DNA from: an uncultured Lentisphaeraceae bacterium
Lineage (GTDB): Bacteria > Verrucomicrobiota > Kiritimatiellia > RFP12 > UBA1067
Assembly (NCBI GenBank): GCA_964440985.1
Contig: CAYTWE010000004.1
Location: 3,092-67,091 of the forward strand
DNA: 64,000 nucleotides
Reading direction: 5' to 3'
Under the pieces are notes generated by a model, which was not told where the DNA came from, searched no databases, and saw nothing but the letters and a program-made list of their open reading frames with translations. Positions 7,050-53,492 of the stretch are shown piece by piece (the stretch's first letter is position 1; the number at the start of each line of letters is the position of its first letter). The position numbers were made by a program, and so were the translations under genes.

Positions 7050-7084
7050 CAGAAAATGTAAAAGCCGCCGTCAGGTCTGGCGGC
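7050..7084 (-). terminator. Rho-independent terminator downstream of rsmI, ending the ASKHA-nahK-dnaB-rsmI transcription unit.
   Basis: On the minus strand the sequence reads GCCGCC-agacctgac-GGCGGC followed by TTTTACATTTTCT. The stem overlaps the rsmI stop codon. Confidence 0.6.
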
Positions 7085-7766
7085 AGAACTTCGGGTTGTT
7101 GCCGGCTATTACGATGGCAACCTCGCCCTTCACCTTTCCGTCCTTGAATTCCGCCACAAGATCGGAAAGATAGCCGCGTGAGACACGCTCATGGAGTTTC
7201 GTCAACTCGATGCACACTGCGGCCTCCCTGTCGCCGAACACGTCATACGCCGCCTGGAGCGTCTGCGCGACACGGAACGGGGATTCGTAGCAGATCAGCG
7301 TATGGTCATGGTCGCGCTCTTCTGCAAACCAGTTCCGCAACGCACCCGGCCCGCGCGGCGGAAATCCCTTGAATGTGAAGGAACTTGTGGAAAGACCGCT
7401 CATCAGCAACGCAACGTTGACGGCGCTCGCGCCTGGTATCACGCAATATGGCACGCGCTCAACCGCGCACTTGCGTATCAGACGGTATCCCGGATCGGAG
7501 ATTCCTGGATACCCGCCATCCGAACAGAGGGCGACATCACCTCCGGCGTTGACCGCGGCGACAATCGTCTCCGCCACCCTGTCTTCATTTCCCTGCCGGT
7601 AGGAGATCATCTCCGGACGCGGTATGCCGAAATGCGTAAGCAGCTGCCACGTGCGGCGGGTGTCTTCGCAGGCTATCAGCCGAACCGACTTCAGGCACTC
7701 GATTGCGCGGGCGCTCATGTCGCCGAGATTGCCGATCGGTGTTGCGACTACGTAGAGCATCGGCAC
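7071..7766 (-). CDS. rsmI: 16S rRNA (cytidine1402-2'-O)-methyltransferase.
   Basis: Tetrapyrrole-methylase fold with MLYVVATPIGNLGD...ACEDTRRT. Confidence 0.85.
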   Translation of the reverse strand: MPMLYVVATPIGNLGDMSARAIECLKSVRLIACEDTRRTWQLLTHFGIPRPEMISYRQGNEDRVAETIVAAVNAGGDVALCSDGGYPGISDPGYRLIRKCAVERVPYCVIPGASAVNVALLMSGLSTSSFTFKGFPPRGPGALRNWFAEERDHDHTLICYESPFRVAQTLQAAYDVFGDREAAVCIELTKLHERVSRGYLSDLVAEFKDGKVKGEVAIVIAGNNPKFCRQT

Positions 7767-7772
7767 ATCCCT

Positions 7773-9281
7773 CTACATCAAATCCTCGACGATTATCTGC
7801 TCCTGATGCATCTCAGGCACGGCAGCCTCGTCCATCTGCCGCTGCACCTCCTCTGCGGCGGCGGTCTCGTCCTTTTGCGACCTGTCGCCGAAACGGACGA
7901 AATCGCGGTAGAAGTTCATCTTCACGTCGCCTGTTTCCCCGTTGCGGTGCTTGGCAACGTCTACGACAGCAAGGTTCTGCGTCTCAACATCGTCACGCGT
8001 CGCCCGCACCATAGACGGACGCCGCAGCATCATCACGACGTCGGCATCCTGCTCGATCGCGCCGGAGTCGCGCAGGTCGGAGAGCTTCGGCACCTCGTTC
8101 TTGTCGCCGCGCTGCTCGTTCGCACGGGAGAGCTGGGAGAGAACTATCACCGGCACCTGAAGCTCCTTGGCCATGGACTTGATCTGTCCGGATATGCGGC
8201 TCACCTCTATCTGGCGGCTCTGCTTTGCGACTTCGCGGCACTGGCAGAGCTGGAGGTAGTCGATTACCACAAGCTCTATTCCGTGCTGACGCTTCATGCG
8301 TCTTGCGCGGGCGCGGAGGTCGGCTATGTCAAGTCCGCTCGCATCGTCAATGTAGATTGGAGCCGTCTTAAGCTCCCCTGCCGCCCTGATGAGCGCAGCG
8401 GTGGCGTCGGCCTTCTCGGACTTCGCCATCAGGTTGCGCGCTATGCGCCACGAACTCACATGTGCGCGTCCGCACAGCATACGCTTCGCAAGCGATTCCG
8501 CATCCATTTCAAGCGAAAAGATCAGCACCGGATGCGGACGTCCCGCATCGCCCTCGAACGGACGCCCGTTTATGTCGCTTCCGAGGGCAACGCATTCCGC
8601 TATGTTCATGGCGAACGAAGTCTTGCCCACCGACGGACGCGCCGCTATGACTATCATCTCCGCCTTCTTCAGACCAAGCAGCTTTTCGTCGATGTACTTG
8701 AAGCCTGTCGGAAGCCCCTCCATCATCCCGGTGGACTCGAAAAGGCGCTCTATCGACTTGAACGTGCGGTCGATTGCGCTCTTCCAGTCCTTCTTGACCG
8801 CAGTTTCGCCGCCAATGCCGAGGAATGCGCTTTCCGCCTCGCCAAGTATCACGTCGGCGTTGCGTCCGTCGCCGCTGTAGCATTTGCGCTCAGTCTCCTG
8901 CGCGGTTGCGATGAGCTTGCGCAGGACGTGCTTCTGCCGCACGATGTCGATGTAATACTCCGCGTGTGCGGATGTAGGCGTACCGGAGACAAGGGATTCG
9001 ACTACTGTGAGCCCTCCGACCGCCTCTAAACGATCCATGGCGCGAAGCCGCTCTATGAGCGTGACGCCGTCCACCGGCATCGTTGCGCGGGACATCTCAA
9101 GGAGCGTCTCGTAGATGATTCTGTGGCGCGGATCGTAGAACGAATCCGGCTCCAGTCCATGCGTGAGACACAGATCAAGCACCCTGGTGTCCTCGCCCGT
9201 CTCCGCATCAAGCAGAATCGAGCCGAGGACACCACGTTCGGCCTCCGCGCTGTGCGGCGGCGTCTTTACGTCGTCCACCAT
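7773..9281 (-). CDS. dnaB: Replicative DNA helicase.
   Basis: DnaB N-terminal domain (ERGVLGSILLD) and a RecA-like C-terminal domain (GKTSFAMNIA, Walker A). Confidence 0.92.
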   Translation of the reverse strand: MVDDVKTPPHSAEAERGVLGSILLDAETGEDTRVLDLCLTHGLEPDSFYDPRHRIIYETLLEMSRATMPVDGVTLIERLRAMDRLEAVGGLTVVESLVSGTPTSAHAEYYIDIVRQKHVLRKLIATAQETERKCYSGDGRNADVILGEAESAFLGIGGETAVKKDWKSAIDRTFKSIERLFESTGMMEGLPTGFKYIDEKLLGLKKAEMIVIAARPSVGKTSFAMNIAECVALGSDINGRPFEGDAGRPHPVLIFSLEMDAESLAKRMLCGRAHVSSWRIARNLMAKSEKADATAALIRAAGELKTAPIYIDDASGLDIADLRARARRMKRQHGIELVVIDYLQLCQCREVAKQSRQIEVSRISGQIKSMAKELQVPVIVLSQLSRANEQRGDKNEVPKLSDLRDSGAIEQDADVVMMLRRPSMVRATRDDVETQNLAVVDVAKHRNGETGDVKMNFYRDFVRFGDRSQKDETAAAEEVQRQMDEAAVPEMHQEQIIVEDLM

Positions 9282-9287: not shown

Positions 9288-10397
9288 TTATGCGCCGGCG
9301 CGGACAATCGCCTCGTATTCGTCCTTCTGAGCCTCCATCGACTCGACCATCTTGAACTGCGTACGGCAGCGCACAAGGTTGTGCTCCGGGTACGCAGTGT
9401 GGAAGTACGTGTCGCCCGCGAGGTAGTCTGTGAGGAAGCGTATCCCGATGGTGAGCGTAATGAGCCTTCCGGAAAACGCAAGGTTGGCCTTCTCCGCCTC
9501 GGTGAGGAACTTCGCCTCAGAGAGATAGCCTTTGACAAGCGCCTCGAAGTACTCCTTGCGGGAGAACACCTTGGACAGATCCTTTTCGTCCTCGGCGGCC
9601 GCCGCAGTTGACGTGCGCACCATGTCGCCGAAGTCGTAGAGAGCACAGCCTGGCATCACGGTGTCGAGATCGATTACGGCAACGCCTTCGCCCGTCGCAT
9701 CGTCGAGCATCACGTTGTTGATCTTCGTGTCGTTGTGCGTGATGCGTTCGGGAATCTCGCCTGCGGCCATCATCTTGACGATCTTGCCGGCCTCTTCCGA
9801 ACGGGCCTCGACGAACGCGAGCTCCGCAGCGACGGATGCCTTGCGGCCAACCTTGTCCTCCGCCGCCGCGACATTAAGCTGCTCAATGCGCGACAGCGTA
9901 TTGTGGAAGTTGGGGATCGTCTCGTAGAGGCGCGGCGCGGGAAGATCCGCAAGTGCGTTCTGGAATCCGGCGAACGCCTTTGCGGCCTTGCGCGCCTGAT
10001 CGGCGTTTTCGATGAGGTCGATAGTCCTTGCGCCGGCGATGAACACATACATGCGCCACCAGCCACCCTCAGGACCACGCGCAACGGGCTGCCCGTCACG
10101 TGACGGTATCACCGTGAGCGTCCGGCGGGACGCATCGTCCGAACCGGCAAACTTGCAGCGTATGTGGTTCGTGACGCGGGCGATGTTCTCCATCACGCGG
10201 TCTGGGCGCGTGAATATGCCGTCGTTGATGCGTTGAAGCACATACGAGACGGGAACGCCGCCAAGGGAAAGGTCGACCTTGAAGGTGTCGTTGATGTGTC
10301 CGGAACCGTACCGGTTCACAGCGACGATGTCGCCGTAGACCTGGAAAAGCGCAATGACCTCACGGAGCTGCTCGTGTGAAAACGTCCTGTTGCTCAT
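9288..10397 (-). CDS. APH-fold anomeric sugar kinase, N-acetylhexosamine 1-kinase (NahK)-like.
   Basis: Motifs GSGHINDTFKV, ITHNDTKINNVMLD, VIDLDTVMPG..YDFGD, AEDEKDLSKV and YPEHNLVRCRTQ match my recollection of Bifidobacterium NahK almost motif-for-motif. A GAGG RBS is present. The gene starts 7 nt after the stop of the upstream gene. Confidence 0.6.
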   Translation of the reverse strand: MSNRTFSHEQLREVIALFQVYGDIVAVNRYGSGHINDTFKVDLSLGGVPVSYVLQRINDGIFTRPDRVMENIARVTNHIRCKFAGSDDASRRTLTVIPSRDGQPVARGPEGGWWRMYVFIAGARTIDLIENADQARKAAKAFAGFQNALADLPAPRLYETIPNFHNTLSRIEQLNVAAAEDKVGRKASVAAELAFVEARSEEAGKIVKMMAAGEIPERITHNDTKINNVMLDDATGEGVAVIDLDTVMPGCALYDFGDMVRTSTAAAAEDEKDLSKVFSRKEYFEALVKGYLSEAKFLTEAEKANLAFSGRLITLTIGIRFLTDYLAGDTYFHTAYPEHNLVRCRTQFKMVESMEAQKDEYEAIVRAGA

Positions 10398-10404
10398 CTT
10401 CGCC

Positions 10405-11802
10405 TCACTTCTTGATCACAGGAATCTGGGCTGCGGCCACAGACTGACCGAGACGACGCGCCTTCTCGTCCGGCATGAACACGTCAACCTCCTCCGCAAG
10501 TGCGGGATCGATCGCCTCAAGCCCCATCCGCGCAGTCTCAAGAAGCAGTTCGCCGCCGAATCCAGACGTGACGCGACCGAGGATCATGAGGTTCGAGAAG
10601 TCGTAGAACTCACGATACCAGCAGACAGCATTGGCGAGGTAGCGGCCGATCATCAGATAGACCTTCATCGCCTTTGCGTCATGCTTCTCCATGGCGGCCT
10701 GAACGACCTTGAGGCGTTCGGGGAGTTTCATCGACTTCGGGAACTTGAATCCGTACTTGCAGGCAAGATGGTTCACGGCCTGCTGCGAGAAGTACATCGC
10801 GCCGACGCCGGCGTCGCCGCTCCATTCGTCGCAAGCGGCATTCGGATTGAGATCCACCGGCGCAAACGCAAGCTCGGAGATGCGGCCTGTCAGCGCCCCC
10901 TTCGGGTTGATGTATCCGACAGCCTCGGACGATCCCATCGCCACGCCGAGGATGCCGCTCTTCTTCATCGTGATCGCACCGGCAAGAGCCGTGACGTCGC
11001 CGTCGTTGTAGACCTCGAACGGCACCTTCCATTCGTCCTCTATGCGCGTGAAGAGGTTGCGGGCTTCGTCCTTCTTCTTCGGGTTCTTCTCGAGAATTGC
11101 GCGAAGAAGCGAAGCCGGTCCGAGCCGCTTGCCGACGAGTGTGCCGGCGGTCGAGCCGCCGATGGCGTCAACCTTGCCGCCAAGAGCCTGTGCGGCCTCT
11201 TCAAGTCCGGCGGAAAGCTTCGTGTAGTGGTATTCGGGATCGGGCTGATTGCGCGGATCCCACGGGAACTCCTTGGAGAACACGACCTTGCCGCGCTTGA
11301 GCGCTGAGATTTTGAAGTCGGAGGCGCCGAGGTCGAACCCGATGCGATTGCCGTTTGTGTTGTTCTTGACGATCACTTCGCGCTCGTTGGTCTCAGGCAT
11401 CTTCTTGAGCGGAACGATGGCGACCTCGAACGGCTTGCCGTAGAGATCCTTGAAGAATCCGTAGTCGAACTTGCGCGCACCCTTTGCCGAGTAGTCCTTG
11501 GCGATGGGCTTTACGATCCAGTCCGGACCGGAGAGATAAAGCTTCCAGCCGCCGGCAGCCCAAAGCACGAACTTCACGCAGCGCTCAACAAGATGAACCA
11601 CTCCGGGACGCGCCGACGAGTGTATGTTGGACGGAATCATCAGGTCGTAGCGGAAGGTGTGTCCATCCTCGCGCTCCCAGGCTATGGCCACGGTCATCGG
11701 CTTGGATTCCGAGGCGGAAAGATACCTGAGGTAGTCCAACGCCCTCGTAGGAGCCTGAAATCCGTCATCCATTTCGCAGCCGCACGTGCACTTCTTCGAC
11801 AT
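10405..11802 (-). CDS. ASKHA-superfamily (hexokinase/ROK/BadF-like) putative sugar kinase with a roughly 170-aa N-terminal extension carrying a CxCxC cluster.
   Basis: IGFDLGASDFKISAL (phosphate-1-like) and AIGGSTAGTLVG motifs. The N-terminus reads MSKKCTCGCEMDD. The start is set at 11802 (AAAGGAAAA RBS, ATG); the ORF-track upstream extension is unlikely. Confidence 0.45.
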   Translation of the reverse strand: MSKKCTCGCEMDDGFQAPTRALDYLRYLSASESKPMTVAIAWEREDGHTFRYDLMIPSNIHSSARPGVVHLVERCVKFVLWAAGGWKLYLSGPDWIVKPIAKDYSAKGARKFDYGFFKDLYGKPFEVAIVPLKKMPETNEREVIVKNNTNGNRIGFDLGASDFKISALKRGKVVFSKEFPWDPRNQPDPEYHYTKLSAGLEEAAQALGGKVDAIGGSTAGTLVGKRLGPASLLRAILEKNPKKKDEARNLFTRIEDEWKVPFEVYNDGDVTALAGAITMKKSGILGVAMGSSEAVGYINPKGALTGRISELAFAPVDLNPNAACDEWSGDAGVGAMYFSQQAVNHLACKYGFKFPKSMKLPERLKVVQAAMEKHDAKAMKVYLMIGRYLANAVCWYREFYDFSNLMILGRVTSGFGGELLLETARMGLEAIDPALAEEVDVFMPDEKARRLGQSVAAAQIPVIKK

Positions 11803-11844
11803 GATATTTTCCTTTGTTGTGTTGATGAAAACTGATGTCAGCGT

Positions 11845-11873
11845 ATGATACACGAAACCGCCGCCGATTTCAA
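11845..11873 (-). promoter_or_regulatory. Sigma70-like promoter (TTGAAA-17 nt-TATCAT) for the ASKHA-nahK-dnaB-rsmI operon.
   Basis: Reverse complement of 11868-11873 is TTGAAA; there is a 17-nt spacer; reverse complement of 11845-11850 is TATCAT, preceded by TG. This gives a leader of about 36 nt. Confidence 0.45.
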
Positions 11874-11988
11874 CCTTGCAAAAAGCCTGAGGCTCCCCCA
11901 TTTCTTTTTCTTGGCGGACGAGGTGGCTGTCTGCGTCTTTGTGTTCTCTGTGTTCTTTGTTGTTTCACGAGAGAGAGTGTGTGGAGAG

Positions 11989-12027
11989 TGGGGGGTGGGG
12001 GTGGGCTTGGTCGCAAACCCACCCCCG
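11989..12027 (-). terminator. GC-rich perfect hairpin (9-bp stem, no U-tract) downstream of the lipoprotein gene; possibly a non-canonical terminator.
   Basis: Minus strand reads GGGGGTGGG-tttgcgaccaag-CCCACCCCC. There is no following T-run; it is embedded in a roughly 100-nt GT/CA-rich low-complexity tract. Confidence 0.3.
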
Positions 12028-12058
12028 CAAAAGAAGTCAACTTTTTCGCTTTTCCGCA

Positions 12059-12622
12059 TCAAATCAGACCGGGCAACAGCCAGCGGAACCAAGGACGCCG
12101 CTTCGCCGAAATGCCAACAGGCTTGCCTTTGTCACTTGTTAACGTCTCCCATGGCTTAATGCGAATCACCTGAACATCCTTGGGAAGAACGACCGGCTTA
12201 TCCTGGATCATGTTCACGCTCTTCATGTTCGCCGGGAAGCCGGTGGCTTCGCATTCGACCTCCTTGTAGAAGAAGTAGTCGCTCACCTTGTAGCGGTAAA
12301 GCGTACCCATGAGCGCATCTGCCTTCGCGTTCTCCAGCGCGTCATATGTGGCCGACGCCTTGGCTGCATGGATGCCCCAGTTGACATCAGGCGAAGGCAC
12401 GGGTGCAGACCTGCCATCGGAGGAGGCGAAAATCCAGAACCAGCAGGAGGATGTTCCCGTCCCCTTCACGCGCTCGTTCCTGATTGTGTAGTCGATGTAG
12501 TACGGATTGCAGCTTCCGTCCGACATCGTCGGCGCAAGTTGCGTATCGCGTTCAACATGATAGGATGTGCTGCATCCCGCCATCAGCAAGGCCGCACCGG
12601 CAACCATCATCATCTGTTTCAT
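12059..12622 (-). CDS. Hypothetical lipoprotein.
   Basis: Signal peptide with lipobox (MKQMMMVAGAALLMAGCS) and a GGAG RBS. No recognisable domain. Confidence 0.6.
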   Translation of the reverse strand: MKQMMMVAGAALLMAGCSTSYHVERDTQLAPTMSDGSCNPYYIDYTIRNERVKGTGTSSCWFWIFASSDGRSAPVPSPDVNWGIHAAKASATYDALENAKADALMGTLYRYKVSDYFFYKEVECEATGFPANMKSVNMIQDKPVVLPKDVQVIRIKPWETLTSDKGKPVGISAKRRPWFRWLLPGLI

Positions 12623-12698: not shown

Positions 12699-13271
12699 AT
12701 GTCAATTAAGATATCATTTTTTTTTTATTGTCAATCCCCCCCCCCCCCCCACACACACACACACACACACACCACCGCCACCACTGTGGATTGGGTCATT
12801 CCCCTGATCTCTGATGGCATCGACAGGACGGCGCTTCCCTTCGCAAACCGCGCCCCGCACGCGGCCGTTCCGCAGTTCGCGCCCAATGCCGCCGTCACTG
12901 TGACACGCAACAAGGGCAAGTCCCGCCACGGAAAGGATGTCGCACCGGTCTCAGTCTCCTTCCCGAACATCGCCGCCGCAGACCAGGCGGACAAGGCCGT
13001 GCGGCCTTTCGACTACGAGGTCACGGTCGAGGCAAAGGAGTGCGACTTCGATAAGACGTGGATGGTCAAGCGCGTCTATTCACCAGGCTTCTACCGTGGC
13101 GCGAAGAAAGACGAGCCGACAGCAACGTGCGTGTTTGCGGCGGAAGAACTGCCACGCGGCAACGGACATGAACCCATCGCGCGCGACCGCACGTTCCGAT
13201 TCGCCGTCCGTCCCGCCAACTGCTTCGGCGCATTGGGCCGCCCCATCCGGTCGGACTGGATGGTCGGATGA
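12699..13271 (+). CDS. Hypothetical ORF whose 5' end spans the T10, C15 and (AC)11 tracts (the only substantial plus-strand ORF here); coding status uncertain.
   Basis: 190-codon ORF with plausible amino-acid composition in its 3' two-thirds. There is no RBS or signal peptide. The repeats encode FFFY, PPPP and HTHTHT, so tract-length changes would shift the frame. Confidence 0.25.
   Translation: MSIKISFFFYCQSPPPPHTHTHTHTTATTVDWVIPLISDGIDRTALPFANRAPHAAVPQFAPNAAVTVTRNKGKSRHGKDVAPVSVSFPNIAAADQADKAVRPFDYEVTVEAKECDFDKTWMVKRVYSPGFYRGAKKDEPTATCVFAAEELPRGNGHEPIARDRTFRFAVRPANCFGALGRPIRSDWMVG
12700..12772 (-). promoter_or_regulatory. Promoter of the lipoprotein gene with an A10 homopolymer inside the -35/-10 spacer, flanked upstream by G15 and (GT)11 tracts; candidate phase-variable promoter.
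   Basis: On the minus strand the order is (GT)11, G15, A, TTGACA (reverse complement of 12729-12734), the 15-nt spacer AT-A10-TGA, then TATCTT (reverse complement of 12708-12713). TGA immediately precedes the -10, so it is an extended -10. The plus strand shows T10 at 12717-12726, C15 at 12736-12750 and (AC)11 at 12751-12772. Confidence 0.5.
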
Positions 13272-20758: not shown

Positions 20759-21832
20759 TCAGCGCTGGACGCGGGCGTTGCCCGCGTAGACGTCCCACAC
20801 CTGCTTTTCGTCGGCCGGCTCTGCATAGTCGTTGAGGGACGATGCCGCCATCACTCCGGATGCCCATCCGAACTGGAGGCACTTGTCCGCCGTCCAGCCC
20901 TTGAGGACGCCATACAGAAGTCCGCCGGTGAATCCGTCGCCGCCGCCGATGCGGTCAAGCACATCGATCTCACGCGGTTCTTCGACAAACCACTTGCCCT
21001 TGGAATAGAGGATTGCACCCCAAAGATGCTTTGATGCAGAGATGACCTGACGCAGCGTCGTGCCGTACATCTGCGCATTAGGATACTTCTTCGTCACCTG
21101 GACGATCATCTCCTTGAAGCGCTCGATCTTGCCCTGCAGATCCTTGCCGCCCGCCTCCGGCCCCTTGAAGCCGAGGCAGAGCTGGAAATCCTCTTCATTC
21201 CCAACGAGGATGTCTGCGACGGACGCGATCTTGTGGAACGCGGCGGCAAGCTCCTTCTCACGCCCCTTCCAGAAAGTGGCGCGGTAGTTGAGGTCGAACG
21301 AGACCAGCACACCGTACTTCTTCGCCTCGGCCGCAAGCTTGAGACAGCATTTCGTCGTTTCCGGGCTCATGGCGGCGATCAGTCCCGAAAGATGCAGAAT
21401 GCCGACGCCATCCTTGCCGAAAAGCCTTGCCGTATCGTAGTCCTTCGCGTCAAGTGTGCGGCCGACTTCGCCGGCGCGGTCATTCCACACGCGAGGTGCG
21501 CGAAGCCCGAAGCCGGAATCGGCGATGTTGAACTGGTGGCGGTATCCCCACGGCCCGCCCTGCGCCACGTCCGGTCCCGCATACGCAATGTTGCGGGCGC
21601 GGAGCTGCGCCTTGATGAACGCCGCCATGGGGCTTCCCTCAACGAAGCGCGTAAGCACAAGGCACTCCCTGCCGAGCGACGACGTCACGTTCAGCACGTT
21701 GGTCTCCGCACTCGTCGCCTGGAGTATGAAGCGGTTGGAGTTGTGCACGGCCATGCGGTTTTCCGGCGTGATGCGAAGTCCCATCGACGACAGGCAGGCC
21801 ACGGCGTACTTTGCGTTCTTCTTCACTTTCAT
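20759..21832 (-). CDS. kdgK: PfkB-family sugar kinase, 2-dehydro-3-deoxygluconokinase-like.
   Basis: PfkB signature DRIGGGDGFTGG near the C-terminus and a ribokinase-like fold. The gene-symbol assignment is tentative. Confidence 0.7.
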   Translation of the reverse strand: MKVKKNAKYAVACLSSMGLRITPENRMAVHNSNRFILQATSAETNVLNVTSSLGRECLVLTRFVEGSPMAAFIKAQLRARNIAYAGPDVAQGGPWGYRHQFNIADSGFGLRAPRVWNDRAGEVGRTLDAKDYDTARLFGKDGVGILHLSGLIAAMSPETTKCCLKLAAEAKKYGVLVSFDLNYRATFWKGREKELAAAFHKIASVADILVGNEEDFQLCLGFKGPEAGGKDLQGKIERFKEMIVQVTKKYPNAQMYGTTLRQVISASKHLWGAILYSKGKWFVEEPREIDVLDRIGGGDGFTGGLLYGVLKGWTADKCLQFGWASGVMAASSLNDYAEPADEKQVWDVYAGNARVQR

Positions 21833-21857: not shown

Positions 21858-22643
21858 TCAGAGTTCCTTGATCTTCAGGTTGCGGTAGGACACCGTGGAG
21901 TCCGAATGATCCTGCAGAAGTATGCGGCCTTCAGGAAGTTCGCCCCACTTGTTCCCGTCCGTACCCCATGTCGCGTACTTGGATTCGGCGACCGCCTGGC
22001 GGAACGCCTCGGAGCCGCGCTCGTACTCAAGCACCTTCTTGCCGTTGAGCCAATGCTCCACATGGCTGCCCTTCGAGACGATCATGCCACGATTCCATTC
22101 GCCTATCGAATTGCAGACCTTTTCGGCATTGGCGGGAATCAGGTCGTAGAGAGACGCCACGCGGCGGTTGCCGTCCTCGCCCTTGTCCCAGTCAGGATGG
22201 CCCTTGTCGAGAATCTGATACTCCTCGCAGGTGCCGCGGTTCTTCGTCTCGTCGTAGAAGTACTTCACGCCGGAATTTGCGCTGTCCGTGAGGCGGAAAT
22301 CAAACTTGAACACGAAATCCCTGTACTTCTTGACGGTGCAGATGTCGCCGCCGCCGCCAAGCTTCACGTCCTCCGGCGGAAGGTCAATCCACCTGCCGTT
22401 GGAGATGCCCTTGATGGGCAGCACGGTAAGCACCCCCTTGCGCATCTTCCAGCCACGATCAGGGAACGTCTTGCAGCCGGACTTCACTCCGACCCATCCG
22501 GCGGATGTCTTGCCGTCCCAGAGCAGTTGCCAACCCTCCGCCTTCTCCTTCTCGGACAACGTATTGGGAGCCTGCTCCGGCTCGCAGAACGTACAGCATC
22601 CCGCGACTGCCGCGAGCGCACCAAGAATCGTAAGCTTCTTCAT
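21858..22643 (-). CDS. DUF1080-family lipoprotein (3-keto-disaccharide hydrolase-like, LamG-type jelly roll).
   Basis: [26 protein letters not shown]...[20 protein letters not shown] is the DUF1080 C-terminal hallmark. Lipobox [27 protein letters not shown] start is taken at the internal Met. Confidence 0.65.
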
Positions 22644-22678
22644 CTTTCGGTCAACCTTTCGTTGTTGGGTAAATGTGC

Positions 22679-22690
22679 GGATTATACCAT
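22679..22690 (-). promoter_or_regulatory. Extended -10 (TGGTATAATC) promoter for the DUF1080-kdgK-porin operon.
   Basis: The reverse complement is ATGGTATAATCC, about 30 nt upstream of the ATG at 22643. Confidence 0.5.
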
Positions 22691-22714
22691 ATCGGCCGTA
22701 CACGAGGCCTGACG

Positions 22715-25525
22715 TCAATGGGCCTCAAGCCAATTCCGGCCGACGCCGACGGACACCTCTATCGGAACTCCGACGTCGAGTGCGTGCTCCATCTCGCGCT
22801 TCGCTATGTCCACGACCTGATCCGCCTCCTCCTTCCGGACGTCAAACAGCAGTTCGTCGTGTATCTGAAGAATCATCCTGGACTTCAATCCGGCCTTCTT
22901 GATTGCACGGTCCACACGCACCATGGCGAGCTTGATCATGTCCGCCGCAGTTCCCTGCACAGGCGTGTTTATCGCATCGCGCTCCGCCGCCGTACGAGCC
23001 GTTGCATTGCGCGAGTTGATGTCGCGCAACGTCCTCCGCCGCCCGAGCAGCGTCTCCGCGTATCCGGTTTTGCGAGCCTTTGCGATGGCTTCGTCCATGT
23101 ATCTCCGAACCGCCGGATAGAGCTTGAAATACGTATCAATCAACGCGGCGGCCTCCGTCCGCGTCACTTTAAGCCTCTGCGCAAGGCCGAACGCGGATAT
23201 TCCGTAGATGATGCCGAAGTTGACCATCTTGCATTTCGAACGCTGCTCCGGGGTGACATCCTCCGGCGACACGCCGAAGACGCGGGCCGCGGCATCGCGG
23301 TGGATGTCCTCACCACGCTCGAACGCGCTCTTCATCGCCTCGTCTCCGCTCATCGCAGCCATCAGTCTCAGCTCTATCTGCGAATAGTCTGCGGAAACGA
23401 GCAGATGCCCGTCATCATGCGGAACGACTGCGGCGCGTATGTTCTTGCCGCGCTCAGTCCGCACCGGTATGTTCTGCAGGTTGGGGCCGCTTGACGAAAG
23501 CCGGCCAGTTTCGGTGAGCGACTGCGCGAACGTGGTGTGGATGCGTCCGTCCACCGGATCTATGCACTGCGGAAGCTTCTCCACGTACGTGGACTTAAGC
23601 TTGGAGCAGGTGCGGTACTCAAGAATGTCGAACACGACGGGATGCAGGCCGATGACGCTCTGCAGCGTCTTCTCGTCCGTCGACCAATGACCCTTCGTCG
23701 TGCGCTTCACTCCGGTGGGGTCGAGCTTGAGCTTGTCGAACAGCAGTTCGCCTATCTGCTTCGGCGAATCGATGTTCATCCCGGGATCGCCGTAGGACAT
23801 TATGGATTTGACGAGTCCCTGTATCTCCCTGTCCAGCGAAACGCCGTACGCCCGCAGCGCCGCCACGTCAATCTTTACGCCCGTAAGCTCCATCTCGGAA
23901 AGGATGTCTGAAAGCGGCTCCTCGCTCTCTTCGAGAACCTTGATCAGTCCGGCGTCCTTCACGGCGGGACGGAGTACGTCCTCAAGCTGCAACGTGACGT
24001 CAGCATCCTCGGCCGCGTAGTCCTTCACAAGCTCAGGCGGCAGGTCGCGCATGTTCTTCTGCGGCTTTCCGCGCTCCTTCGCGCCGATCAGATCCTCGAT
24101 AGGCACCGGTGCATATCCAAGACGCTCCCGCGCCATCACGTCCATGCCATGCCGTGCGGCGGCGTCCAGCACATAGTGTTCGAGCATCGTATCATGCACA
24201 GTAGACCCGAACCGTATTCCGTAGCGCTTCAGGAGCGTCGTGTCGAACTTCGCGTTCTGCGCTATGAGCGTCTTGTCCGGATCGGCGAACGCCTTGGCGA
24301 ACACCTGCACAAATTCCCTCGCAGAGACTGCGGATGACATCGAGAACGAAAACAGGTCGTCGGACGCGGCAACGCCTCCACCCTGCGGGACTGCGGCGTA
24401 CCAGGCGCGGCCAGGCTCTGTGGCGAAACTCATGCCTACGATGTCGGCGGTGCGGGCATCGGTGCTTGTTGTCTCGGTGTCAAACGCAAAGCGGGGAGCA
24501 GCCTCAAGTATCGCGGCCAACTCCCTGGCCTGTTCAATCGTCGTGACAAGACTGTACTCGTGCGGAACGTCGCGCAGCGTACGAAGGTGTTCCGGATCAG
24601 GTCTGTCATCGTTTCGCGACGTCGGCTCGTTGGCCCGTACGTTGACCGGAGACAGATATATGCCGAACCTCTTGGCGAGGTTGTACAGCTCGTATTTCAC
24701 GCACACCGCAGTCAGCCTGTCGGTGTCCGGCGGCGTAAGGCGGCACGTCTCGAGGTCTATGTCGATAGATACATCCGTCCGGATCGTAGCGAGGAATTTC
24801 GACAGCTTTGCGTCCTCCACTCCGGCGGACACCTTTTCGCCGATCTTGCCGCCTATTTCGGACGCATGGGCAATGATGTTCTCGATGCTGCCCCAGTCGT
24901 TGAGCAGCTGCGCGGCCGACTTCCCGCCTATTCCCTTTATGCCTGATATGTTGTCTGCGGTGTCCCCGGCGAGCGCAAGGAAATCGATCATCTGCTTCGG
25001 ATGCGCAAGCCCCCACATCCTCTTTACGTCCTCCACGCCAAGCACTTCGGACGCCGATGCGCCCTTCCCAGGACGGAACAGCTTTATCCTGTCCGTCACC
25101 AGCTGCGCGGCATCCTTGTCCGGCGTGACGACATACACCATGTCGAACCCCTCCGCCACGGCCTTCTCCGCAAGCGTACCGATGACGTCGTCCGCCTCGA
25201 ATCCTGACTTCCGCACGACAGGGATGTTCAGGGCGTCAGCGACCTCGAACGAATACGGTATGTTCTCCGCAAGCTCCTCAGGCATCTTCTGCCTGTGCGC
25301 CTTGTACCCCGGAAACATCTCGTGCCTGAAAGTCTTGCCGTCGGGATCCATGGCCAACGCCACATGCGTCGGCGAAATCTCCTTCAGCACGGCCATCACT
25401 CCGTTCACGAAGCCAAGAAGAGCCGATGTGTTGATCCCGGAATACGTGATGCGCGGCTTGTTCAGGAACACAAAATGGCCGCGATACAGAAATGGCATCA
25501 AATCGATGACGCACAGCGTTTTCAT
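22715..25525 (-). CDS. polA: DNA polymerase I.
   Basis: 5'-3' exonuclease N-terminus ([18 protein letters not shown]), 3'-5' exonuclease and polymerase domains. The start is at MKTL; the ORF-track upstream extension is rejected. Confidence 0.93.
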
Positions 25526-25534
25526 AATGCGCCC

Positions 25535-25546
25535 GATTATACCACA
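25535..25546 (-). promoter_or_regulatory. Extended -10 (TGTGGTATAATC) 10 nt upstream of the polA ATG, giving a near-leaderless transcript.
   Basis: The reverse complement is TGTGGTATAATC-gggcgcatt-ATG, with no room for an RBS. Confidence 0.5.
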
Positions 25547-25568
25547 ATGCCCATGCCGCATGGAGCGG

Positions 25569-26439
25569 TCAGTGGTCGTGCCGCCCCTCGCCGTGCCATG
25601 GGATGAACGGCGGCACCTCGTCGATGCCGGCGGCAATCCTCTGGCGAACGGCCTCATACAGCAGAATCGTGGCGGCGGCGGACACGTTGAGGGAGTCCGC
25701 AAGGCCGAGCATCGGAATTCGTACGCGCAGCTCCGCTCCGTCCATCCACTTCTCCGTGAGGCCGTACTGCTCCGCGCCAAGCGCCACGGCGACGTTCCCC
25801 GTGAGATCAACCTCGAAATGCAGCCGCTCCGCATGTGGCGTAGCCGCAAGTATCTTGAACCCATTCGCCTTGAGCCAGGCCAAGGCCTCCTCGGATGTCG
25901 CCTCGACGATCGGCACCGAGAACATCGTGCCGGTAGACGCCCGCACCACGTTCGGGTTGTGTATGTCGGTCGTGCGGTCGCACACGATCACGGCGGACAC
26001 CTTTGCGGCGTCCGCGCTGCGGAGGATCGTTCCGAGGTTGCCGGGCTTCTCGATCGCCTCAGTCACCACAACAAGCGCGTTTGGAGGAAGCGAAAGGTCT
26101 GAAAGCCGTTTGGAGACGTGCGGCCCGGTCATCAGCAGACCGTCGGGGCGCTCCTTGTACGCCATCTTCACGAACGCCGTCTTTGAACACAGAAACACGT
26201 CCGCGCCCGCACGTTCGGCGTCATCCACGAGATTCCGTTCGTTCTCGTTTTTGAGGTACAGATCCGGACAGTGGAAGATTGCGTTCGGACGATATCCGTT
26301 GTCGAGCGCCCGGCGGCATTCACGAAAGCCCTCGACTATCATCTCACCCGTCTCCTCTCGCTCCGAACAGGAGCGAAGCTTGACGACGTGCTTTATCTTC
26401 GGATTCGCTGGACTAGTCAGTTCAGTTCTCACTTCCGGA
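25569..26439 (-). CDS. TrmH/SpoU-family RNA 2'-O-methyltransferase (RlmB-like).
   Basis: SPOUT domain (GNVAVALGAEQYGLT...LNVSAAATILLYE) with an N-terminal substrate-binding domain. The start is estimated at the GTG at 26439 after a GGAG RBS. Confidence 0.65.
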
Positions 26440-28982: not shown

Positions 28983-31385
28983 CTACCTGGCAAAATCCAG
29001 CAGCCTCACCGTCTCCGGAGGGATCGTCGCTTCGGCAGCTCCGTTGATGAACCGCCACTCTGCACCGGCCACAAGCTCCTTTGCCCGCTTTGCACCGGTA
29101 AGCGACCTGATCCTCACGTTCTGCGGCGTTGTGCCTGAATTGAACACGGTCAGGTATCTGTCGCCAAACTGCTCGACGAACACCGATGGCGTCTCGGAGA
29201 CGGCAAGGGTGTTGACCGGACGCCATCCGGCCTCAGAGATCATTCGGCAGAGCGGCACGTACTTCTTGAACAGCGGACGGTCACGATTGTACAGTTCAGG
29301 GCACGAGAAGTAGTGCCCGCCGGAGGCGTTCGGACTGAAGAAGCTCGGAAGCAGGCCATAGGCGAGCGTACGCTGCATGTACTTCTCTACCATCTCGTGA
29401 GTGAACTTGCTGAAATCCACGTTCATCAGGAAGCAGTACGGCTTGCCGCCGCTTATCGCCCGACGGTAGAGCAGCTCTTCGTCGGACATCGGCTTCCACT
29501 GCGCCGTCTTGTGGTCAATCCACCCGGTCTCAGTCCCGTTGTAGTCGCTGTACGGAACGAGCCACGGCCAGCGGTTCGGAACGGCGTTGCACATCAGGAG
29601 GCGACCTATCGAATGGCATCTATCAGATGCGGCGCGAACGTACTCGTAGAACATGAGCGACTTGGCGAGAGCTGGACGCTTCGTCTCCTTGGAATAGACA
29701 AGCGGCGTCTTTGAATACGCAAAATGCTCGCGGTTGAAGTTCACATCCGGAGTGACATACCCTTCTGCGGAGTCGATGTACTCACCGTCCACGCCCTGCG
29801 GGAACGTCTTGCCGCCGTAGCGTCCGTTCCACTCCTTGTCCGAGAACTTGTAGGCGTATTCGCCGCCGGGGAGCGACGGAAGCGGACACAGATTCCATAC
29901 CGCGCCGCTGCACCACGGCTCATCCTTGACCTTGCCGACAACACTTCCGTGTTCATCGCGAAAGGCAGACCTGCGCCACGCAATGGCGAATTCGTTTCCG
30001 TTTGCGGCCTGCCTGTCGCCCTCGATGAAGCAGTCGCCGATTGTGTATCCGCCCATTCCCTTCGGCATCGCCATCCACCATGTGGACGGTTCCGTGTAGC
30101 GGAACGTGAGTATGCCGTGGGCATCGTCCCAGCCCGGCTCTCCGTCGCCCTCCTTCACGCCAAATCCAAAATCATCCCACCCTTCGACCTTGCTGATGTT
30201 GTGGAACGCCATCCATATGCCGTGCCTTTTGATCCTGACTTCGTTGAGTTCCGGATAGAGTGCCTGATACGTCGCAAGAGCGCCGCGGAATCCGTGCTTT
30301 GCCGGGAACGCAAAGCGCACGAAACGGAAATGCGCGTCGGGATGCTCCTTGGCGAATCCGAGGTCGAATGCGATGAACAGCTGACGCAGACGCTGGTGGG
30401 CGGTCACGCGGAACACGGCAGGCGCCGTGCAGTCAATGCCGAGCGCAACGCCCTTTCCGTCAACGGTCACGGCGCCAAACGGCCAACGGGACATCAGCCC
30501 TTCACCTGCGTTCTGCTGAATCGTGGTGCGGAACTGGACATCGCCCTCCGCATCGAGCGTCACGTCTGTGCGCGGATCGGAATGCCACACCATCGGCGCG
30601 GCTTCATCGAACGGAATCGCGTACACAAGCGTGACGGCCCTGTCACGTCCGGAAAGCTCACGCGCCGTGACATCGAAGATCGTGGCATCTGCAATCTGCT
30701 CCGTCTTCACGTCAAGCGCAATCTTCTCCGCCTCGCCGCCGGACGCAACGGAAACGAAACCGCGACCGGCCGTGACGTCTCGCACCATGAAACCGGGCGC
30801 TTCGAGCCTGCGCTGCCGTGAGAGATCCGCAAAGCAGGTGTCATACATCGAAATCGCGCCAAGCGAATGCAGACGGACGACCGGTGCACGGAACTTGACG
30901 CGGCCGGCGACGTTCCTCAAAAGCAGATTGCAGGAGAACGACTTGACCGGCTTGTTCGGCATTACCGTCACTTTCCCCTTCTGCCAGCCGAGACCAGGAT
31001 TGCGGGTGAACTGGGCGCACTGTCCGTACAGCGACGTTCCGTCCGCATACTGCACGTCGATGTAGAGAGCGTAGTCGTTGGAGCGCTCTCCGCGCACGGA
31101 GACGGCCAGGCTCTCCGCCGTAACGGTGAACGGTGCGGCATTGGTCTGATTCAAGTTTACGTTCCACGATGCGCCACGGGACACCTTGGAATCCTTGCCG
31201 TTGTCGCACACGATAACGTCCGAACCCTCAAATGCGAACCCTTCGCCAAACTTGCGGCATTTGTCGAAGGACAGGTCCCGCACAGATACGCCAGCCGTTC
31301 CGGAAGCCTCCGGATACACCACGCCGCCCACAAGCGGAAGCGCAAAGATCGCAACCGCCGCAAAAAACAGATTTGATGCCTTCAT
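28983..31385 (-). CDS. Large secreted hypothetical protein, glycoside-hydrolase-like.
   Basis: Signal peptide MKASNLFFAAVAIFALPLV, 800 aa, Trp/aromatic-rich carbohydrate-active-enzyme-like composition. I recognise no confident family. The start at 31385 is leaderless. Confidence 0.4.
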   Translation of the reverse strand: MKASNLFFAAVAIFALPLVGGVVYPEASGTAGVSVRDLSFDKCRKFGEGFAFEGSDVIVCDNGKDSKVSRGASWNVNLNQTNAAPFTVTAESLAVSVRGERSNDYALYIDVQYADGTSLYGQCAQFTRNPGLGWQKGKVTVMPNKPVKSFSCNLLLRNVAGRVKFRAPVVRLHSLGAISMYDTCFADLSRQRRLEAPGFMVRDVTAGRGFVSVASGGEAEKIALDVKTEQIADATIFDVTARELSGRDRAVTLVYAIPFDEAAPMVWHSDPRTDVTLDAEGDVQFRTTIQQNAGEGLMSRWPFGAVTVDGKGVALGIDCTAPAVFRVTAHQRLRQLFIAFDLGFAKEHPDAHFRFVRFAFPAKHGFRGALATYQALYPELNEVRIKRHGIWMAFHNISKVEGWDDFGFGVKEGDGEPGWDDAHGILTFRYTEPSTWWMAMPKGMGGYTIGDCFIEGDRQAANGNEFAIAWRRSAFRDEHGSVVGKVKDEPWCSGAVWNLCPLPSLPGGEYAYKFSDKEWNGRYGGKTFPQGVDGEYIDSAEGYVTPDVNFNREHFAYSKTPLVYSKETKRPALAKSLMFYEYVRAASDRCHSIGRLLMCNAVPNRWPWLVPYSDYNGTETGWIDHKTAQWKPMSDEELLYRRAISGGKPYCFLMNVDFSKFTHEMVEKYMQRTLAYGLLPSFFSPNASGGHYFSCPELYNRDRPLFKKYVPLCRMISEAGWRPVNTLAVSETPSVFVEQFGDRYLTVFNSGTTPQNVRIRSLTGAKRAKELVAGAEWRFINGAAEATIPPETVRLLDFAR

Positions 31386-31392
31386 GTGCCGC

Positions 31393-31401
31393 ATTGTATC
31401 A
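31393..31401 (-). promoter_or_regulatory. Extended -10 (TGATACAAT) 7 nt upstream of the ATG, giving a leaderless transcript.
   Basis: The reverse complement is TTATGATACAAT-gcggcac-ATG. Confidence 0.45.
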
Positions 31402-33624
31402 TAATGAACCGCCGAGGACACGTGCAACGTGCGGAAGGAAGGCGGCGGACAACGCCTTGTATCCGGCGTCGGTCGGGTGGGCTGAATCCGACATCATCCC
31501 GTGCACGATGTCGCCGTTTGCGTCAACGAATCGTCCCCCCGCATTCTCAAAGCTGACCTTCCCGTCATATCCGTACGACGGGATTCGCGACAAAAGCGCA
31601 TTCAGCCTGTCCACGTTCCGGCGAAGCGGACTTCCCGGTGTCCCCGCCGGCAGGGCGCCCATCAGCAGAATGCGCGCCTGCGGCTGGATGCGCCGGATGC
31701 GGCCGATCAGGCCTCTGATCGCCTGCGCCGTCTCCTCCGGTGAATCCGCCTTCCCCTCTTCGTCCGGCACAAGGTTGTTTCTGCCGAGCATGATTACAAC
31801 CAGCTGTGTACGCACGTTCTTGAGTTCGCCGTTGTCGACTCGCCAAAGCGCGTTCTCCGTGCGGTCGCCAGCACAGCTCATGTTCATGACGCGCACACGG
31901 CGGTCGAACATCGCCTTCCAGCGCGGCAGCGTCAGCGAGTCGTCCGTCTCGCCGATGGAGTCGATGCCCGACCACAGATGGAGCGCATCGTCGCCGATGA
32001 ACACGACATTCGGATTCGTGCGCCATGTCTTGGCTTCCGCCAATATGTAGTCATGCCGTTCGCGCCAGTCATAGCCAACGGCCCGTACGTTCTCCGCCGG
32101 CTGCAGGGCACGGCTGGCCGGAACGCCCTCCGGCGTCGGGGCGGCGTTCACGCCCATCCGGCGAAGCCTCGGAATGTGATCGCCCATCCGCCGAAGGAAA
32201 TCGCCGTAATTGAGGGCGGACTTCTCCGACCACAGGATTTCCGCAACGGCGCACAGCCTCGGAAAGCCCTGCCACATAAGCTCTTCCGGAACACGTATTC
32301 CCTCCGACCAGAGAAGCCCCTCCGAACCCAGCACATGACCGGCAAATTCGCCGGGAACGCCGTCTGTCGGATCGAAAGAGTAGACGCGGGAAAGCGGCAG
32401 CCCGCCGCCGTCCGACCGCCACGGATCGTCGGGAATCCCCTGCTTCTGGTCAAGGTACATCAACCGGTTCGGACAGACCACGCAGTCGACGCCGTTCGTG
32501 GCGGCGAAAGCCGCCTTCTCCGTTCCAAGCCAGCACATGGCCGCCGTGTTTCCGCAGATGCCGCCGTCCAGCATCTCCTCCCAGCCAATGGCACGTTTGC
32601 CCTTCTTCATCAGATACTCCGCGAAATGGCGCATCAGCCACGTCTGCAGCGCATTCTCGTCCTTCAGCCCGGCGGACTTGATGCGGGCCTGGCATTTCGG
32701 ACACTTCCGCCAGCGGATCTTCGGACACTCGTCGCCGCCGATGTGGATGAACTCGGAATGCTTGAACAGGCGACAGTATTCGTCAAGAACGCTTTCAAGG
32801 AAGGCGATTGCGCGGTCGTTTCCGGCGCAGTACAGCTCGCGCTTGACGCCCCATTTCACGTCCACGCGGCGTTCAAGCCGCTCTCCAAGGCACGAGAATT
32901 CCGGATAGGCCGTAAGCGCGGCCCTGGAGTGTCCGGGAATCTCAAGCTCCGGCACGATCTTGACATGATGCCGTTCCGCGAACTCGACGATCTCCTTGAT
33001 ATCCTCCTCCGTGTAGAAATGCGGCCCGTACCGCCGTCCGTCGCCCTCAGCGGAGTTGTCGAAGCGCGGACTTTCCGCCCGAACTGCCCCCCGTGCCGTC
33101 AGCTCCGGCCATTTCCGGATCTCGATGCGCCACCCCTGGTCTTCCGTCAGGTGCCAATGCAGAACGTTCAGCTTGTTGAACGCCATGGCCTCGATTATCT
33201 TCTTGATCGTCTCCTTGCCGAAGAAATGGCGTCCTTCGTCCACAAGGCAGCCCCGCCAGCGGAAGCGCGGCCAGTCCCGTATGCGGCAGAACGGATACGA
33301 GACCTGCTCGCCCACGCCCTGCGCCAGCTGCCGAAGCGTAATCCGCGCATAAAACGCGCCGTCGCCGTCCGACGACGCCACGCGAACGCCACTGGCATCG
33401 ACCGTCAGTTCATATCCCGCTTTCGGCTGGGCCGCATCAAAGACGTCAACCACATTTGTGCCGCTGTACATCCCGTCACGCCATTCAACCTGCCGAGGCG
33501 CAGGAACGATCGACGGCAGGATGCCTGTGCCACCGGCACCCGCCCCCGCATATGCGAAAACGGCTACTGAACACGCAAGCGCGCAGACCGCGCCCCTCAC
33601 GGACATTTTCTTTTCACTCATCAT
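31399..33624 (-). CDS. Bifunctional secreted beta-N-acetylhexosaminidase (GH20) fused to a C-terminal SGNH/GDSL esterase domain.
   Basis: GH20 catalytic core (RFRWRGCLVDEGRHFF...LNVLHWHLTEDQGWRIEI). C-terminal VVFIGDDALHLWSG...LLMGALPAG matches SGNH blocks I and III. Signal peptide present. Confidence 0.7.
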   Translation of the reverse strand: MMSEKKMSVRGAVCALACSVAVFAYAGAGAGGTGILPSIVPAPRQVEWRDGMYSGTNVVDVFDAAQPKAGYELTVDASGVRVASSDGDGAFYARITLRQLAQGVGEQVSYPFCRIRDWPRFRWRGCLVDEGRHFFGKETIKKIIEAMAFNKLNVLHWHLTEDQGWRIEIRKWPELTARGAVRAESPRFDNSAEGDGRRYGPHFYTEEDIKEIVEFAERHHVKIVPELEIPGHSRAALTAYPEFSCLGERLERRVDVKWGVKRELYCAGNDRAIAFLESVLDEYCRLFKHSEFIHIGGDECPKIRWRKCPKCQARIKSAGLKDENALQTWLMRHFAEYLMKKGKRAIGWEEMLDGGICGNTAAMCWLGTEKAAFAATNGVDCVVCPNRLMYLDQKQGIPDDPWRSDGGGLPLSRVYSFDPTDGVPGEFAGHVLGSEGLLWSEGIRVPEELMWQGFPRLCAVAEILWSEKSALNYGDFLRRMGDHIPRLRRMGVNAAPTPEGVPASRALQPAENVRAVGYDWRERHDYILAEAKTWRTNPNVVFIGDDALHLWSGIDSIGETDDSLTLPRWKAMFDRRVRVMNMSCAGDRTENALWRVDNGELKNVRTQLVVIMLGRNNLVPDEEGKADSPEETAQAIRGLIGRIRRIQPQARILLMGALPAGTPGSPLRRNVDRLNALLSRIPSYGYDGKVSFENAGGRFVDANGDIVHGMMSDSAHPTDAGYKALSAAFLPHVARVLGGSL

Positions 33625-33641
33625 CAACACCTTTCCTTCCG

Positions 33642-33647
33642 ATTATA
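33642..33647 (-). promoter_or_regulatory. -10 hexamer TATAAT upstream of the GH20-SGNH gene, with a GGAAGGAAAGG RBS.
   Basis: The reverse complement is GGTATAATCGGAAGGAAAGGTGTTGATGATG. Confidence 0.4.
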
Positions 33648-33993
33648 CCGTCAGGCGCAAACTTATGTTCAGCGCCTTTCCCCGGCACGTAAGCGACGGA
33701 TAGAAGAGAACGATCCTTTCTGCGTCTGCCGTGACGGTCGGCGTCTGCTCCGCCCCCAGCACGGGCACCTCACGCTCCTCATGTCCGCCGCGCCGGTCGT
33801 CGAAATAGAGCCGCCACAGCTGTGCGCCGCCCGCCCAGTCATGCCCCGTCGCCTTGCATACGAGCGCCTTCAGTTCGCCCCTGTCTCCGACTTCGACGCG
33901 CACAAGGCCGTTCTCAAGACTTGCCGCCGCCGCTACTGACGCGACGCCGGCCAATGCCAGCGCGAGCAGACCGGTTTTTCGCGAATAATTCAT
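33643..33993 (-). CDS. Small secreted hypothetical protein (116 aa).
   Basis: Signal peptide MNYSRKTGLLALALAGVASVAAAAS. It could be a free-standing N-terminal-like domain or a gene remnant. Confidence 0.35.
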   Translation of the reverse strand: MNYSRKTGLLALALAGVASVAAAASLENGLVRVEVGDRGELKALVCKATGHDWAGGAQLWRLYFDDRRGGHEEREVPVLGAEQTPTVTADAERIVLFYPSLTCRGKALNISLRLTV

Positions 33994-33995
33994 CT

Positions 33996-52113: not shown

Positions 52114-52121
52114 GTTGTGGC

Positions 52122-52134
52122 GTATTATACCACA
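52122..52134 (-). promoter_or_regulatory. Extended -10 (TGTGGTATAATA) promoter for the M16 peptidase gene.
   Basis: The reverse complement is TGTGGTATAATA-cgccacaac-ATG. It sits immediately after the eno terminator. Confidence 0.5.
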
Positions 52135-52135
52135 C

Positions 52136-52180: not shown

Positions 52181-52199
52181 GTTATCCGAGAAGGTCGGT

Positions 52200-53492
<1,293 letters not shown>

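Follow-up and report, generated by a model that had tools for sequence, protein, structure and literature searches.

In the bifidobacterial galacto-N-biose/lacto-N-biose (GNB/LNB) pathway, N-acetylhexosamine (HexNAc)-1-phosphate returns to N-acetylglucosamine (GlcNAc)-6-phosphate and the enzymes NagA/NagB. The Bifidobacterium longum kinase of this pathway is NahK (LnpB, BL1642), of the aminoglycoside phosphotransferase (APH) fold; its partners are lnpA (GH112 phosphorylase), lnpC (uridylyltransferase) and lnpD (epimerase). The deacetylate-first chitin/glucosamine (GlcN) pathway of Thermococcus combines a PIG-L-type Dac, a GlcN kinase and a SIS-type GlmD. Here we describe a pair of adjacent kinase genes, one a NahK homologue and the other a divergent ROK-like kinase of the ASKHA fold, in a 64,000-nucleotide stretch (the window) of contig CAYTWE010000004.1, from an uncultured Lentisphaeraceae bacterium of the class Kiritimatiellia.

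A NahK homologue has also been characterised outside Bifidobacterium. BT4240 of Bacteroides thetaiotaomicron, 39% identical to BL1642, is an O1 kinase that prefers N-acetylgalactosamine (GalNAc) about 275-fold (PMC11992087). It is essential for growth on GalNAc and required for the use of GalNAc from mucin and chondroitin sulfate, and half of the growth on chondroitin sulfate depends on it (PMC11992087). Neither the text of that study nor its description of the locus genes names a uridylyltransferase, and what later becomes of the product is not described there (PMC11992087).

The window NahK homologue shares with BL1642 the APH fold and the catalytic and Mg motifs, but none of lnpA, lnpC and lnpD lies beside it, and no lnpABCD-type partner (GH112, GalT-type uridylyltransferase or uridine diphosphate (UDP)-hexose 4-epimerase) was found among the window proteins scanned. 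Set beside it by description, BT4240 likewise stands alone as a NahK homologue, in a gut bacterium that degrades host glycans; it belongs to a polysaccharide utilisation locus that also encodes glycosidases, an M60-like protease and SusC/D, whereas the window gene order is kinase-kinase-dnaB-rsmI. The original prediction had seen the missing adjacent uridylyltransferase as unusual; since BT4240 was characterised without one being named (PMC11992087), this lack is not unusual.

We consider it rather likely that the products of the two window genes serve as parallel kinases for the entry of amino sugars that this gut Kiritimatiellia bacterium frees from host glycans. The ROK-like kinase would phosphorylate free GlcNAc, possibly GlcN, at O6, and the resulting GlcNAc-6-phosphate or GlcN-6-phosphate would feed the NagA/NagB trunk leading to fructose-6-phosphate. 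The NahK homologue would phosphorylate GalNAc and/or GlcNAc at O1, and would probably be the point of entry for GalNAc. Its HexNAc-1-phosphate may become UDP-HexNAc, whether for salvage or for turning GalNAc into GlcNAc in a Leloir-like way, or may in the end return to GlcNAc-6-phosphate. The folds, the conserved catalytic residues and the gene contexts and fusions of relatives are observed; the substrates, the position phosphorylated by the ROK-like kinase and the fate of HexNAc-1-phosphate we infer. The pair is laid out as follows:

10405-11802, minus strand: ROK-like (ASKHA) kinase, 465 aa, start ATG at 11802
11359..11802, minus strand: conserved α/β N-terminal domain of this kinase, residues 1-148
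10405..11358, minus strand: its kinase core of ASKHA type and ROK fold (residues 149-465 and the stop codon), probably an amino-sugar 6-kinase
9288-10397, minus strand: NahK homologue (NahK/LnpB-type, APH fold), 369 aa

For the NahK homologue the prediction of a genuine NahK-type anomeric kinase, active at O1, is a solid one. The protein scores 55 bits against PF01636 (APH; gathering cutoff 23.2) and matches B. longum NahK (4ocj/4wh1) at E 3e-84, residues 3-365 aligning with 20-371 at 43% identity. Its HNDTKINN catalytic loop, which carries the Asp base, aligns column-for-column with HNDTKLNN of 4ocj, the Mg-binding IDLDT is kept in the same columns, and the two proteins also share the EDEKDLSKV and YPEHNLVR blocks. 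The hallmark motifs from which the gene had been named are thus present and aligned to B. longum NahK, and the profile search does not place the protein elsewhere. The next-best PDB matches all have E above 0.1, and it is therefore not a member of another APH subfamily. Methylthioribose (MTR) kinase and AmgK types were considered and ruled out, NahK being the sole strong match. Public databases name relatives only ‘aminoglycoside phosphotransferase family protein’ or ‘RdoA’, and a literature search on NahK in Kiritimatiellia returned nothing. The protein adds one more, ordinary member to a known family.

The partner has a ROK fold, is very divergent and has kept its catalytic residues, from which kinase activity is predicted. 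A Foldseek search with a full-length AlphaFold2 model (predicted local distance difference test, pLDDT, 68) returned only ROK kinases or repressors among the top 40 matches, at E ~1e-12 over ~320-340 columns and with template modelling (TM) scores to the target of 0.61-0.70. These include 2qm1, the Plesiomonas NagK 7p7w, 3vgk, 3vov and N-acetylmannosamine (ManNAc) kinases. The family profile A2 matches the ROK glucokinase 2qm1 at E 1.7e-11. In that alignment IGFDLGASDFK (D157) pairs with the phosphate-1 DxGG motif, which starts at residue 153, NDGDVTALAG (N266, D267, G268) with the catalytic xNDxN motif, and GVAMGSSEAVGY (G290, G296) with the Gly-rich phosphate-2 motif. In the conservation alignments of the family, A2 and A3 (49 and 76 members), D157, N266, D267, G268, G290 and G296 are either invariant or conserved to at least 90%. 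Because the catalytic and phosphate motifs are conserved across the family, the protein is not a pseudokinase, a possibility that we dismiss; fold and residues together uphold the earlier ASKHA/ROK-like assignment. The window protein scores below the gathering threshold of PF00480 (ROK); its distant relatives P0140, P0165 and P0217 pass it (40.3, 30.1 and 24.3 bits; cutoff 22.9), and Clostridia members of the family carry a precomputed PF00480 match.

Compared with the known ROK sugar kinases (E. coli/Plesiomonas NagK, 2qm1, 3vgk and ManNAc kinases), the window kinase has the ASKHA/ROK fold in common over ~310 residues and shares phosphate-1 DxGG, Asn-Asp and Gly-rich phosphate-2, at an identity of only ~15-20%. 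Those enzymes are ~300 aa long with a Cys-rich zinc motif and His, whereas the window kinase is longer, lacks both and carries an extra 148-aa domain. The ROK zinc motif, GHx(9-11)CxCGxxGCxE, was sought in the alignment and is absent; the segment concerned, SELAFAPVDLNPNAACDEWSGDAGVGAMYF, has no His or Cys cluster. The likeness to NagK extends to gene context, relatives of the window kinase adjoining nagA and nagB.

The extra N-terminal domain is real, although shorter than first described: ~148 rather than ~170 aa, the ROK core starting near residue 150. Modelled alone (AlphaFold2, 28 sequences from two phyla) it gives a confident α/β fold (pLDDT 88.9, predicted TM score 0.80) with elements in the order α-β-β-α-β-α-α-β, and a Foldseek search of this model against the PDB gave nothing significant (best E 0.049, TM 0.31). 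Invariant residues include E43, R44, E73, R74, K77, W81, G84, G85, K87, R110 and D113; the charged ones among them (E43, R44, E73, R74, K77, K87, R110 and D113) suggest a role other than packing alone. The Cys cluster at residues 5-9, earlier proposed as a possible metal site, is missing from the Kiritimatiellia members P0041, P0097 and P0120 and from all Clostridia relatives. A zinc or other metal site was dismissed on this lack of conservation.

The family is large. More than 8000 relatives share words with the window kinase, and in a library of representatives at 50% identity 1386 match at E ≤ 0.001; among the matches listed, most cover its full length at about 31-52% identity. Total length in the family is ~455-465 aa. 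Across the best 80 of 328 confirmed GTDB genome matches, mostly metagenome-assembled genomes of Kiritimatiellia, kinase identity is 66-93%. Public annotation of the subfamily reads only ‘ROK family protein’ or ‘hypothetical’, and a literature search for the combination of ROK, PIG-L and GlcN kinase found nothing describing it.

It is the surroundings of these relatives that point to amino sugars. We examined six distinct contexts of Clostridia relatives, which match over the full length at 41-44% kinase identity. In four of the six (L082/83, L090, L091 and L092) nagA overlaps or abuts the kinase start, the L092 nagA scoring above cutoff against TIGR00221 (322 bits). The operon of L084/85 comprises GntR/UTRA, a NagB-II-like SIS protein, the kinase and a PIG-L deacetylase; these are the enzyme types of the Thermococcus pathway, although the Thermococcus kinase is ADP-dependent and unrelated, and the window has no PIG-L gene. 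In one of the six no amino-sugar neighbour was seen. Among the Kiritimatiellia, nagB lies immediately downstream of the kinase in L037, L041, L052 and L060, that of L060 passing TIGR00502. Two relatives, P0127 and P0146, have NagB fused N-terminally to the kinase (TIGR00502, 295.6 and 249.9 bits; cutoff 236.9).

Apart from NahK in L092, these operons hold no second kinase, which argues that the ROK-like family makes a 6-phosphate from a free amino sugar. Judged from these contexts, coupling of the kinase to NagA would most likely mean GlcNAc as the substrate, and coupling to PIG-L and a deaminase, or fusion to NagB, possibly GlcN. The window partner is accordingly placed, through its relatives, as most likely an amino-sugar (GlcNAc/GlcN) 6-kinase, and its subfamily would probably be a non-orthologous NagK. 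CutC is a protein of unsettled function; P0224 and P0269 have a CutC domain fused N-terminally to the long ROK-like kinase, which hints at a role of CutC in amino-sugar metabolism.

Pairing with NahK was counted over species-level genome loci that offer at least 1.2 kb of sequence downstream of the kinase. Open reading frames were called with a codon-usage scorer that missed some NahK genes, so adjacency was counted by tblastn. NahK adjoins the kinase in 22 of the 65 loci, unevenly with distance:

kinase identity to the window protein of at least 85%: NahK adjacent in 4 of 5 loci
kinase identity 74-81%: 2 of 28 loci
kinase identity 66-73%: 16 of 32 loci

In L087 the two genes overlap. In the more distant L088 and L089 (59% and 51% kinase identity) the order is kinase, PIG-L, NahK; the PIG-L/LmbE-type deacetylase (~280 aa; L088:6056-6898, L089:6015-6851) is 53% identical to that of Clostridia L085 (8489-9520), and may act on free GlcNAc or on a HexNAc that is phosphorylated or anomerically substituted. 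Two epimerase genes adjoin NahK in L089 only. In the single Clostridia case, L092, the genes run NahK, NagA, kinase, and the NahK there is 47% identical to that of the window, with a match to 4ocu at E 3e-104. The pairing is patchy but deep, spanning two phyla, which argues for a shared pathway, and on balance we regard the kinase-NahK pair as a recurrent functional module. The return to GlcNAc-6-phosphate in the bifidobacterial pathway would account for the clustering of NahK with a nag-type kinase and NagA.

A further gene recurs beside the kinase. In 11 Kiritimatiellia loci a PF01676 (Metalloenzyme superfamily) protein of ~285-310 aa is encoded directly upstream on the same strand (L048:5134-5988, L064:7076-7933, L077:7079-7936 and L080:3358-4245 are among them), and in three of the 11 NahK is also found downstream. 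The protein, which the window lacks, has weak similarity to the phosphopentomutase/iPGM core and could, as a sugar-phosphate mutase, join the 1-phosphate and 6-phosphate pools.

Several observations tell against the assignment of the partner to amino sugars. The window ROK-like sequence alone matches nothing in Pfam (E <= 0.01), NCBIfam or the PDB, the curated NagK models of NCBIfam included, and confidence in its full-length model is only moderate. Function is read from relatives at 41-77% identity, and specificity for GlcNAc, GlcN or glucose could differ in the window protein. The reading leaves the role of the N-terminal domain unexplained. In the window proteins that we scanned there is no product of a nagA, nagB, glmU, GH112, galT-like or epimerase gene, so the pathway cannot be seen locally. 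In most Kiritimatiellia loci, moreover, the kinase neighbours housekeeping genes (dnaN, era, mnmE), surroundings that would suit a general glucokinase equally well.

This last point leaves the main rival, in which the ROK-like protein is a general glucokinase/hexokinase of central glycolysis and the adjacency of NahK is inherited synteny. Housekeeping neighbours, with dnaB in that place in the window, are joined here by the very high conservation of the kinase (the 66-93% identity in those best 80 of 328 GTDB matches) and by the weak NCBIfam matches of relatives, which are to the ROK glucokinase family TIGR00744. Against these stand the NagB fusions, the nagA overlaps and the adjacency of nagB, NagB-II and PIG-L in two phyla, all of which point to amino sugars, and a pairing with NahK that is kept down to 51% kinase identity and found in Clostridia, hard to account for as neutral synteny. 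We judge the glucokinase role unlikely.

A more novel arrangement would make NahK, the long ROK-like kinase and NagA or PIG-L one undescribed route for HexNAc-1-phosphate, GalNAc-1-phosphate especially, that bypasses UDP-sugars. In some genomes it would include the phosphomutase-like PF01676 protein, and the N-terminal domain would supply a second activity or the binding of the 1-phosphorylated sugar. Such a bypass seems to us improbable; if true, it would answer what becomes of GalNAc-1-phosphate in non-bifidobacterial gut bacteria.

The original prediction had offered a route possibly leading to a sugar bisphosphate, or else the sequential phosphorylation of two different sugars. In the former, NahK would make HexNAc-1-phosphate and the ROK-like kinase would convert it to HexNAc-1,6-bisphosphate, an intermediate or mutase cofactor. 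The N-terminal invariant residues R44, R74, K77, K87, R110 and D113 could bind phosphate, the PF01676 gene is directly upstream in 11 loci, 3 of them with NahK, and the fate of GalNAc-1-phosphate outside bifidobacteria is undefined (PMC11992087). However, relatives sit in NagA/NagB operons without NahK, which argues that the kinase makes a 6-phosphate from the free sugar alone: only L092 of the six Clostridia contexts has NahK, and elsewhere the kinase must use free sugar. About two thirds of Kiritimatiellia loci likewise have the kinase without a nearby NahK, NagB-kinase fusions imply the 6-phosphate as direct product, and no bisphosphate-using enzyme was identified. The bisphosphate route is quite improbable, and two kinases working on two sugars or positions fit the evidence best. 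Least probable is a non-catalytic sugar sensor or regulator (like Mlc or NagC) whose N-terminal domain is the output controlling NahK or the operon: ROK repressors (1z05, 3bp8, 5f7q), also with an extra N-terminal domain, are among the structural matches, but the window domain has no helix-turn-helix and no match to ROK repressor winged-helix domains, the catalytic Asp and both phosphate motifs are (near-)invariant across the 49 and 76 members, and NagB fusion and overlap with the end of nagA are typical enzyme traits.

Both GalNAc and GlcNAc belong to the core sugars of mucins and glycosaminoglycans. Their entry into the metabolism of gut anaerobes outside Bifidobacterium is only partly known, and the fate of GalNAc-1-phosphate in Bacteroides is undefined (PMC11992087). 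The analysis flags a large, unnamed and uncharacterised kinase subfamily, of which the Clostridia and Kiritimatiellia members examined occur in nag-type operons and whose conserved extra domain matches no solved structure. The subfamily probably supplies a GlcNAc/GlcN kinase that genome-scale metabolic models have been missing, and its pairing with NahK gives a candidate gene set for amino-sugar entry in Kiritimatiellia that degrade mucin and sulfated glycans.

In the window the two kinase genes are followed, on the same strand, by dnaB and rsmI; the layout of four co-directional genes described earlier is real. The remaining features of this unit are:

7773-9281, minus strand: dnaB, replicative helicase; TIGR00665 415.8 bits (cutoff 385), Pfam DnaB and DnaB_C both matching
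7071-7766, minus strand: rsmI, 16S rRNA (C1402-2'-O)-methyltransferase; TIGR00096 199.5 bits (cutoff 167.9)
11845..11873, minus strand: sigma-70-like promoter candidate TTGAAA-17-TATCAT; 10 of 12 positions match, 43 nt upstream of ATG 11802
7053..7084, minus strand: terminator-like hairpin, GCCGCC, 9-nt loop, GGCGGC, then TTTTACATTTT; overlaps the rsmI stop codon

The open reading frame of the ROK-like kinase extends over 10405-11901. We place the start inside it, at ATG 11802, because homologues begin MSKKC/MAKKC and an AGGA ribosome-binding site precedes this ATG; the length earlier given as 466 aa becomes 465 aa. Spacing is 7 nt between kinase and NahK, and 6 nt both between NahK and dnaB and between dnaB and rsmI, from which co-transcription of the four genes is plausible. 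The promoter candidate is sensibly located relative to the kinase gene, and promoter-like sites in the region are at chance level (3 observed, 2.7 expected from shuffled sequence). The hairpin has a fold energy of -12.4 kcal/mol (z = -1.9); the scanner allowed loops of up to 8 nt, and this 9-nt-loop hairpin was found by reading the sequence. 

The order kinase-NahK-dnaB-rsmI is found in L002-L005 only (kinase identity 86-100%). In all other loci with the kinase-NahK pair different genes follow, among them a Na+/H+ exchanger-EIIA fusion, mnmE and RND efflux genes; the pair recurs (the 22 of 65 loci), and the four-gene order does not extend beyond close relatives. A meaningful co-regulation with dnaB was rejected, synteny being confined to four species. 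The original prediction had tied amino-sugar salvage to the replicative helicase; with the linkage limited to the four closest species, the joining with dnaB and rsmI looks more like a genus-level accident of gene order than anything else, the unit being probably constitutive. The supposed link to DNA replication is incidental and merits no follow-up. A different replication gene, dnaN (DNA polymerase III beta), lies on the opposite strand ~1-2 kb upstream of the kinase in L057, L063, L068, L069, L076 and L077, all in the clade of 66-73% kinase identity. Kinase genes are thereby near replication genes in two arrangements (dnaN, dnaB), probably through housekeeping clustering.

The sister strain L002, whose kinase is 100% identical to that of the window, has 94% nucleotide identity to the window across the operon. 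Collinearity breaks at 11892, immediately upstream of the promoter-like site: L002 has a 3.6-kb insertion (L002:4268-7914) where the window has 186 nt (11892-12078). Within the inserted DNA is the gene for a 677-aa protein that carries both He_PIG (Ig-like) and InlB B-repeat domains.

The window (1-64000) holds ~45 predicted genes, all but one on the minus strand, and GC skew is negative in 30 of 32 2-kb windows and near zero in the others (10001-12000 and 52001-54000). It appears to be a long co-directional piece of one replichore. A glycan-degradation cluster occupies 28983-41535; its members include a GH20 hexosaminidase that carries a fused GDSL esterase domain (31399-33630), an FGE-sulfatase-domain protein (40030-41535) and large proteins at 28983-31427 and 33996-37043 with no Pfam match, a third large protein (37040-40033) not being among those scanned. 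A sialate-esterase-like protein is also encoded in the window, and together with the GH20 and FGE-sulfatase-domain proteins it fits a host-glycan lifestyle. Just downstream of polA (22715-25864), a PfkB-family sugar kinase gene (20759-21832) adjoins one for a PF06439 3-keto-disaccharide hydrolase domain protein (21858-22718); these may be a small sugar-utilisation pair among housekeeping genes.

Two intergenic stretches of the window are unusual. A perfect inverted repeat, GGGGGTGGG...CCCACCCCC, followed by C/A-rich low-complexity sequence, lies at 11985-12035, just downstream of a lipoprotein-like gene (12059-12622), and at ~12735-12775 a (CA)n-type tract is read as PPPPHTHTHTHT in the open reading frame 12699-13271.

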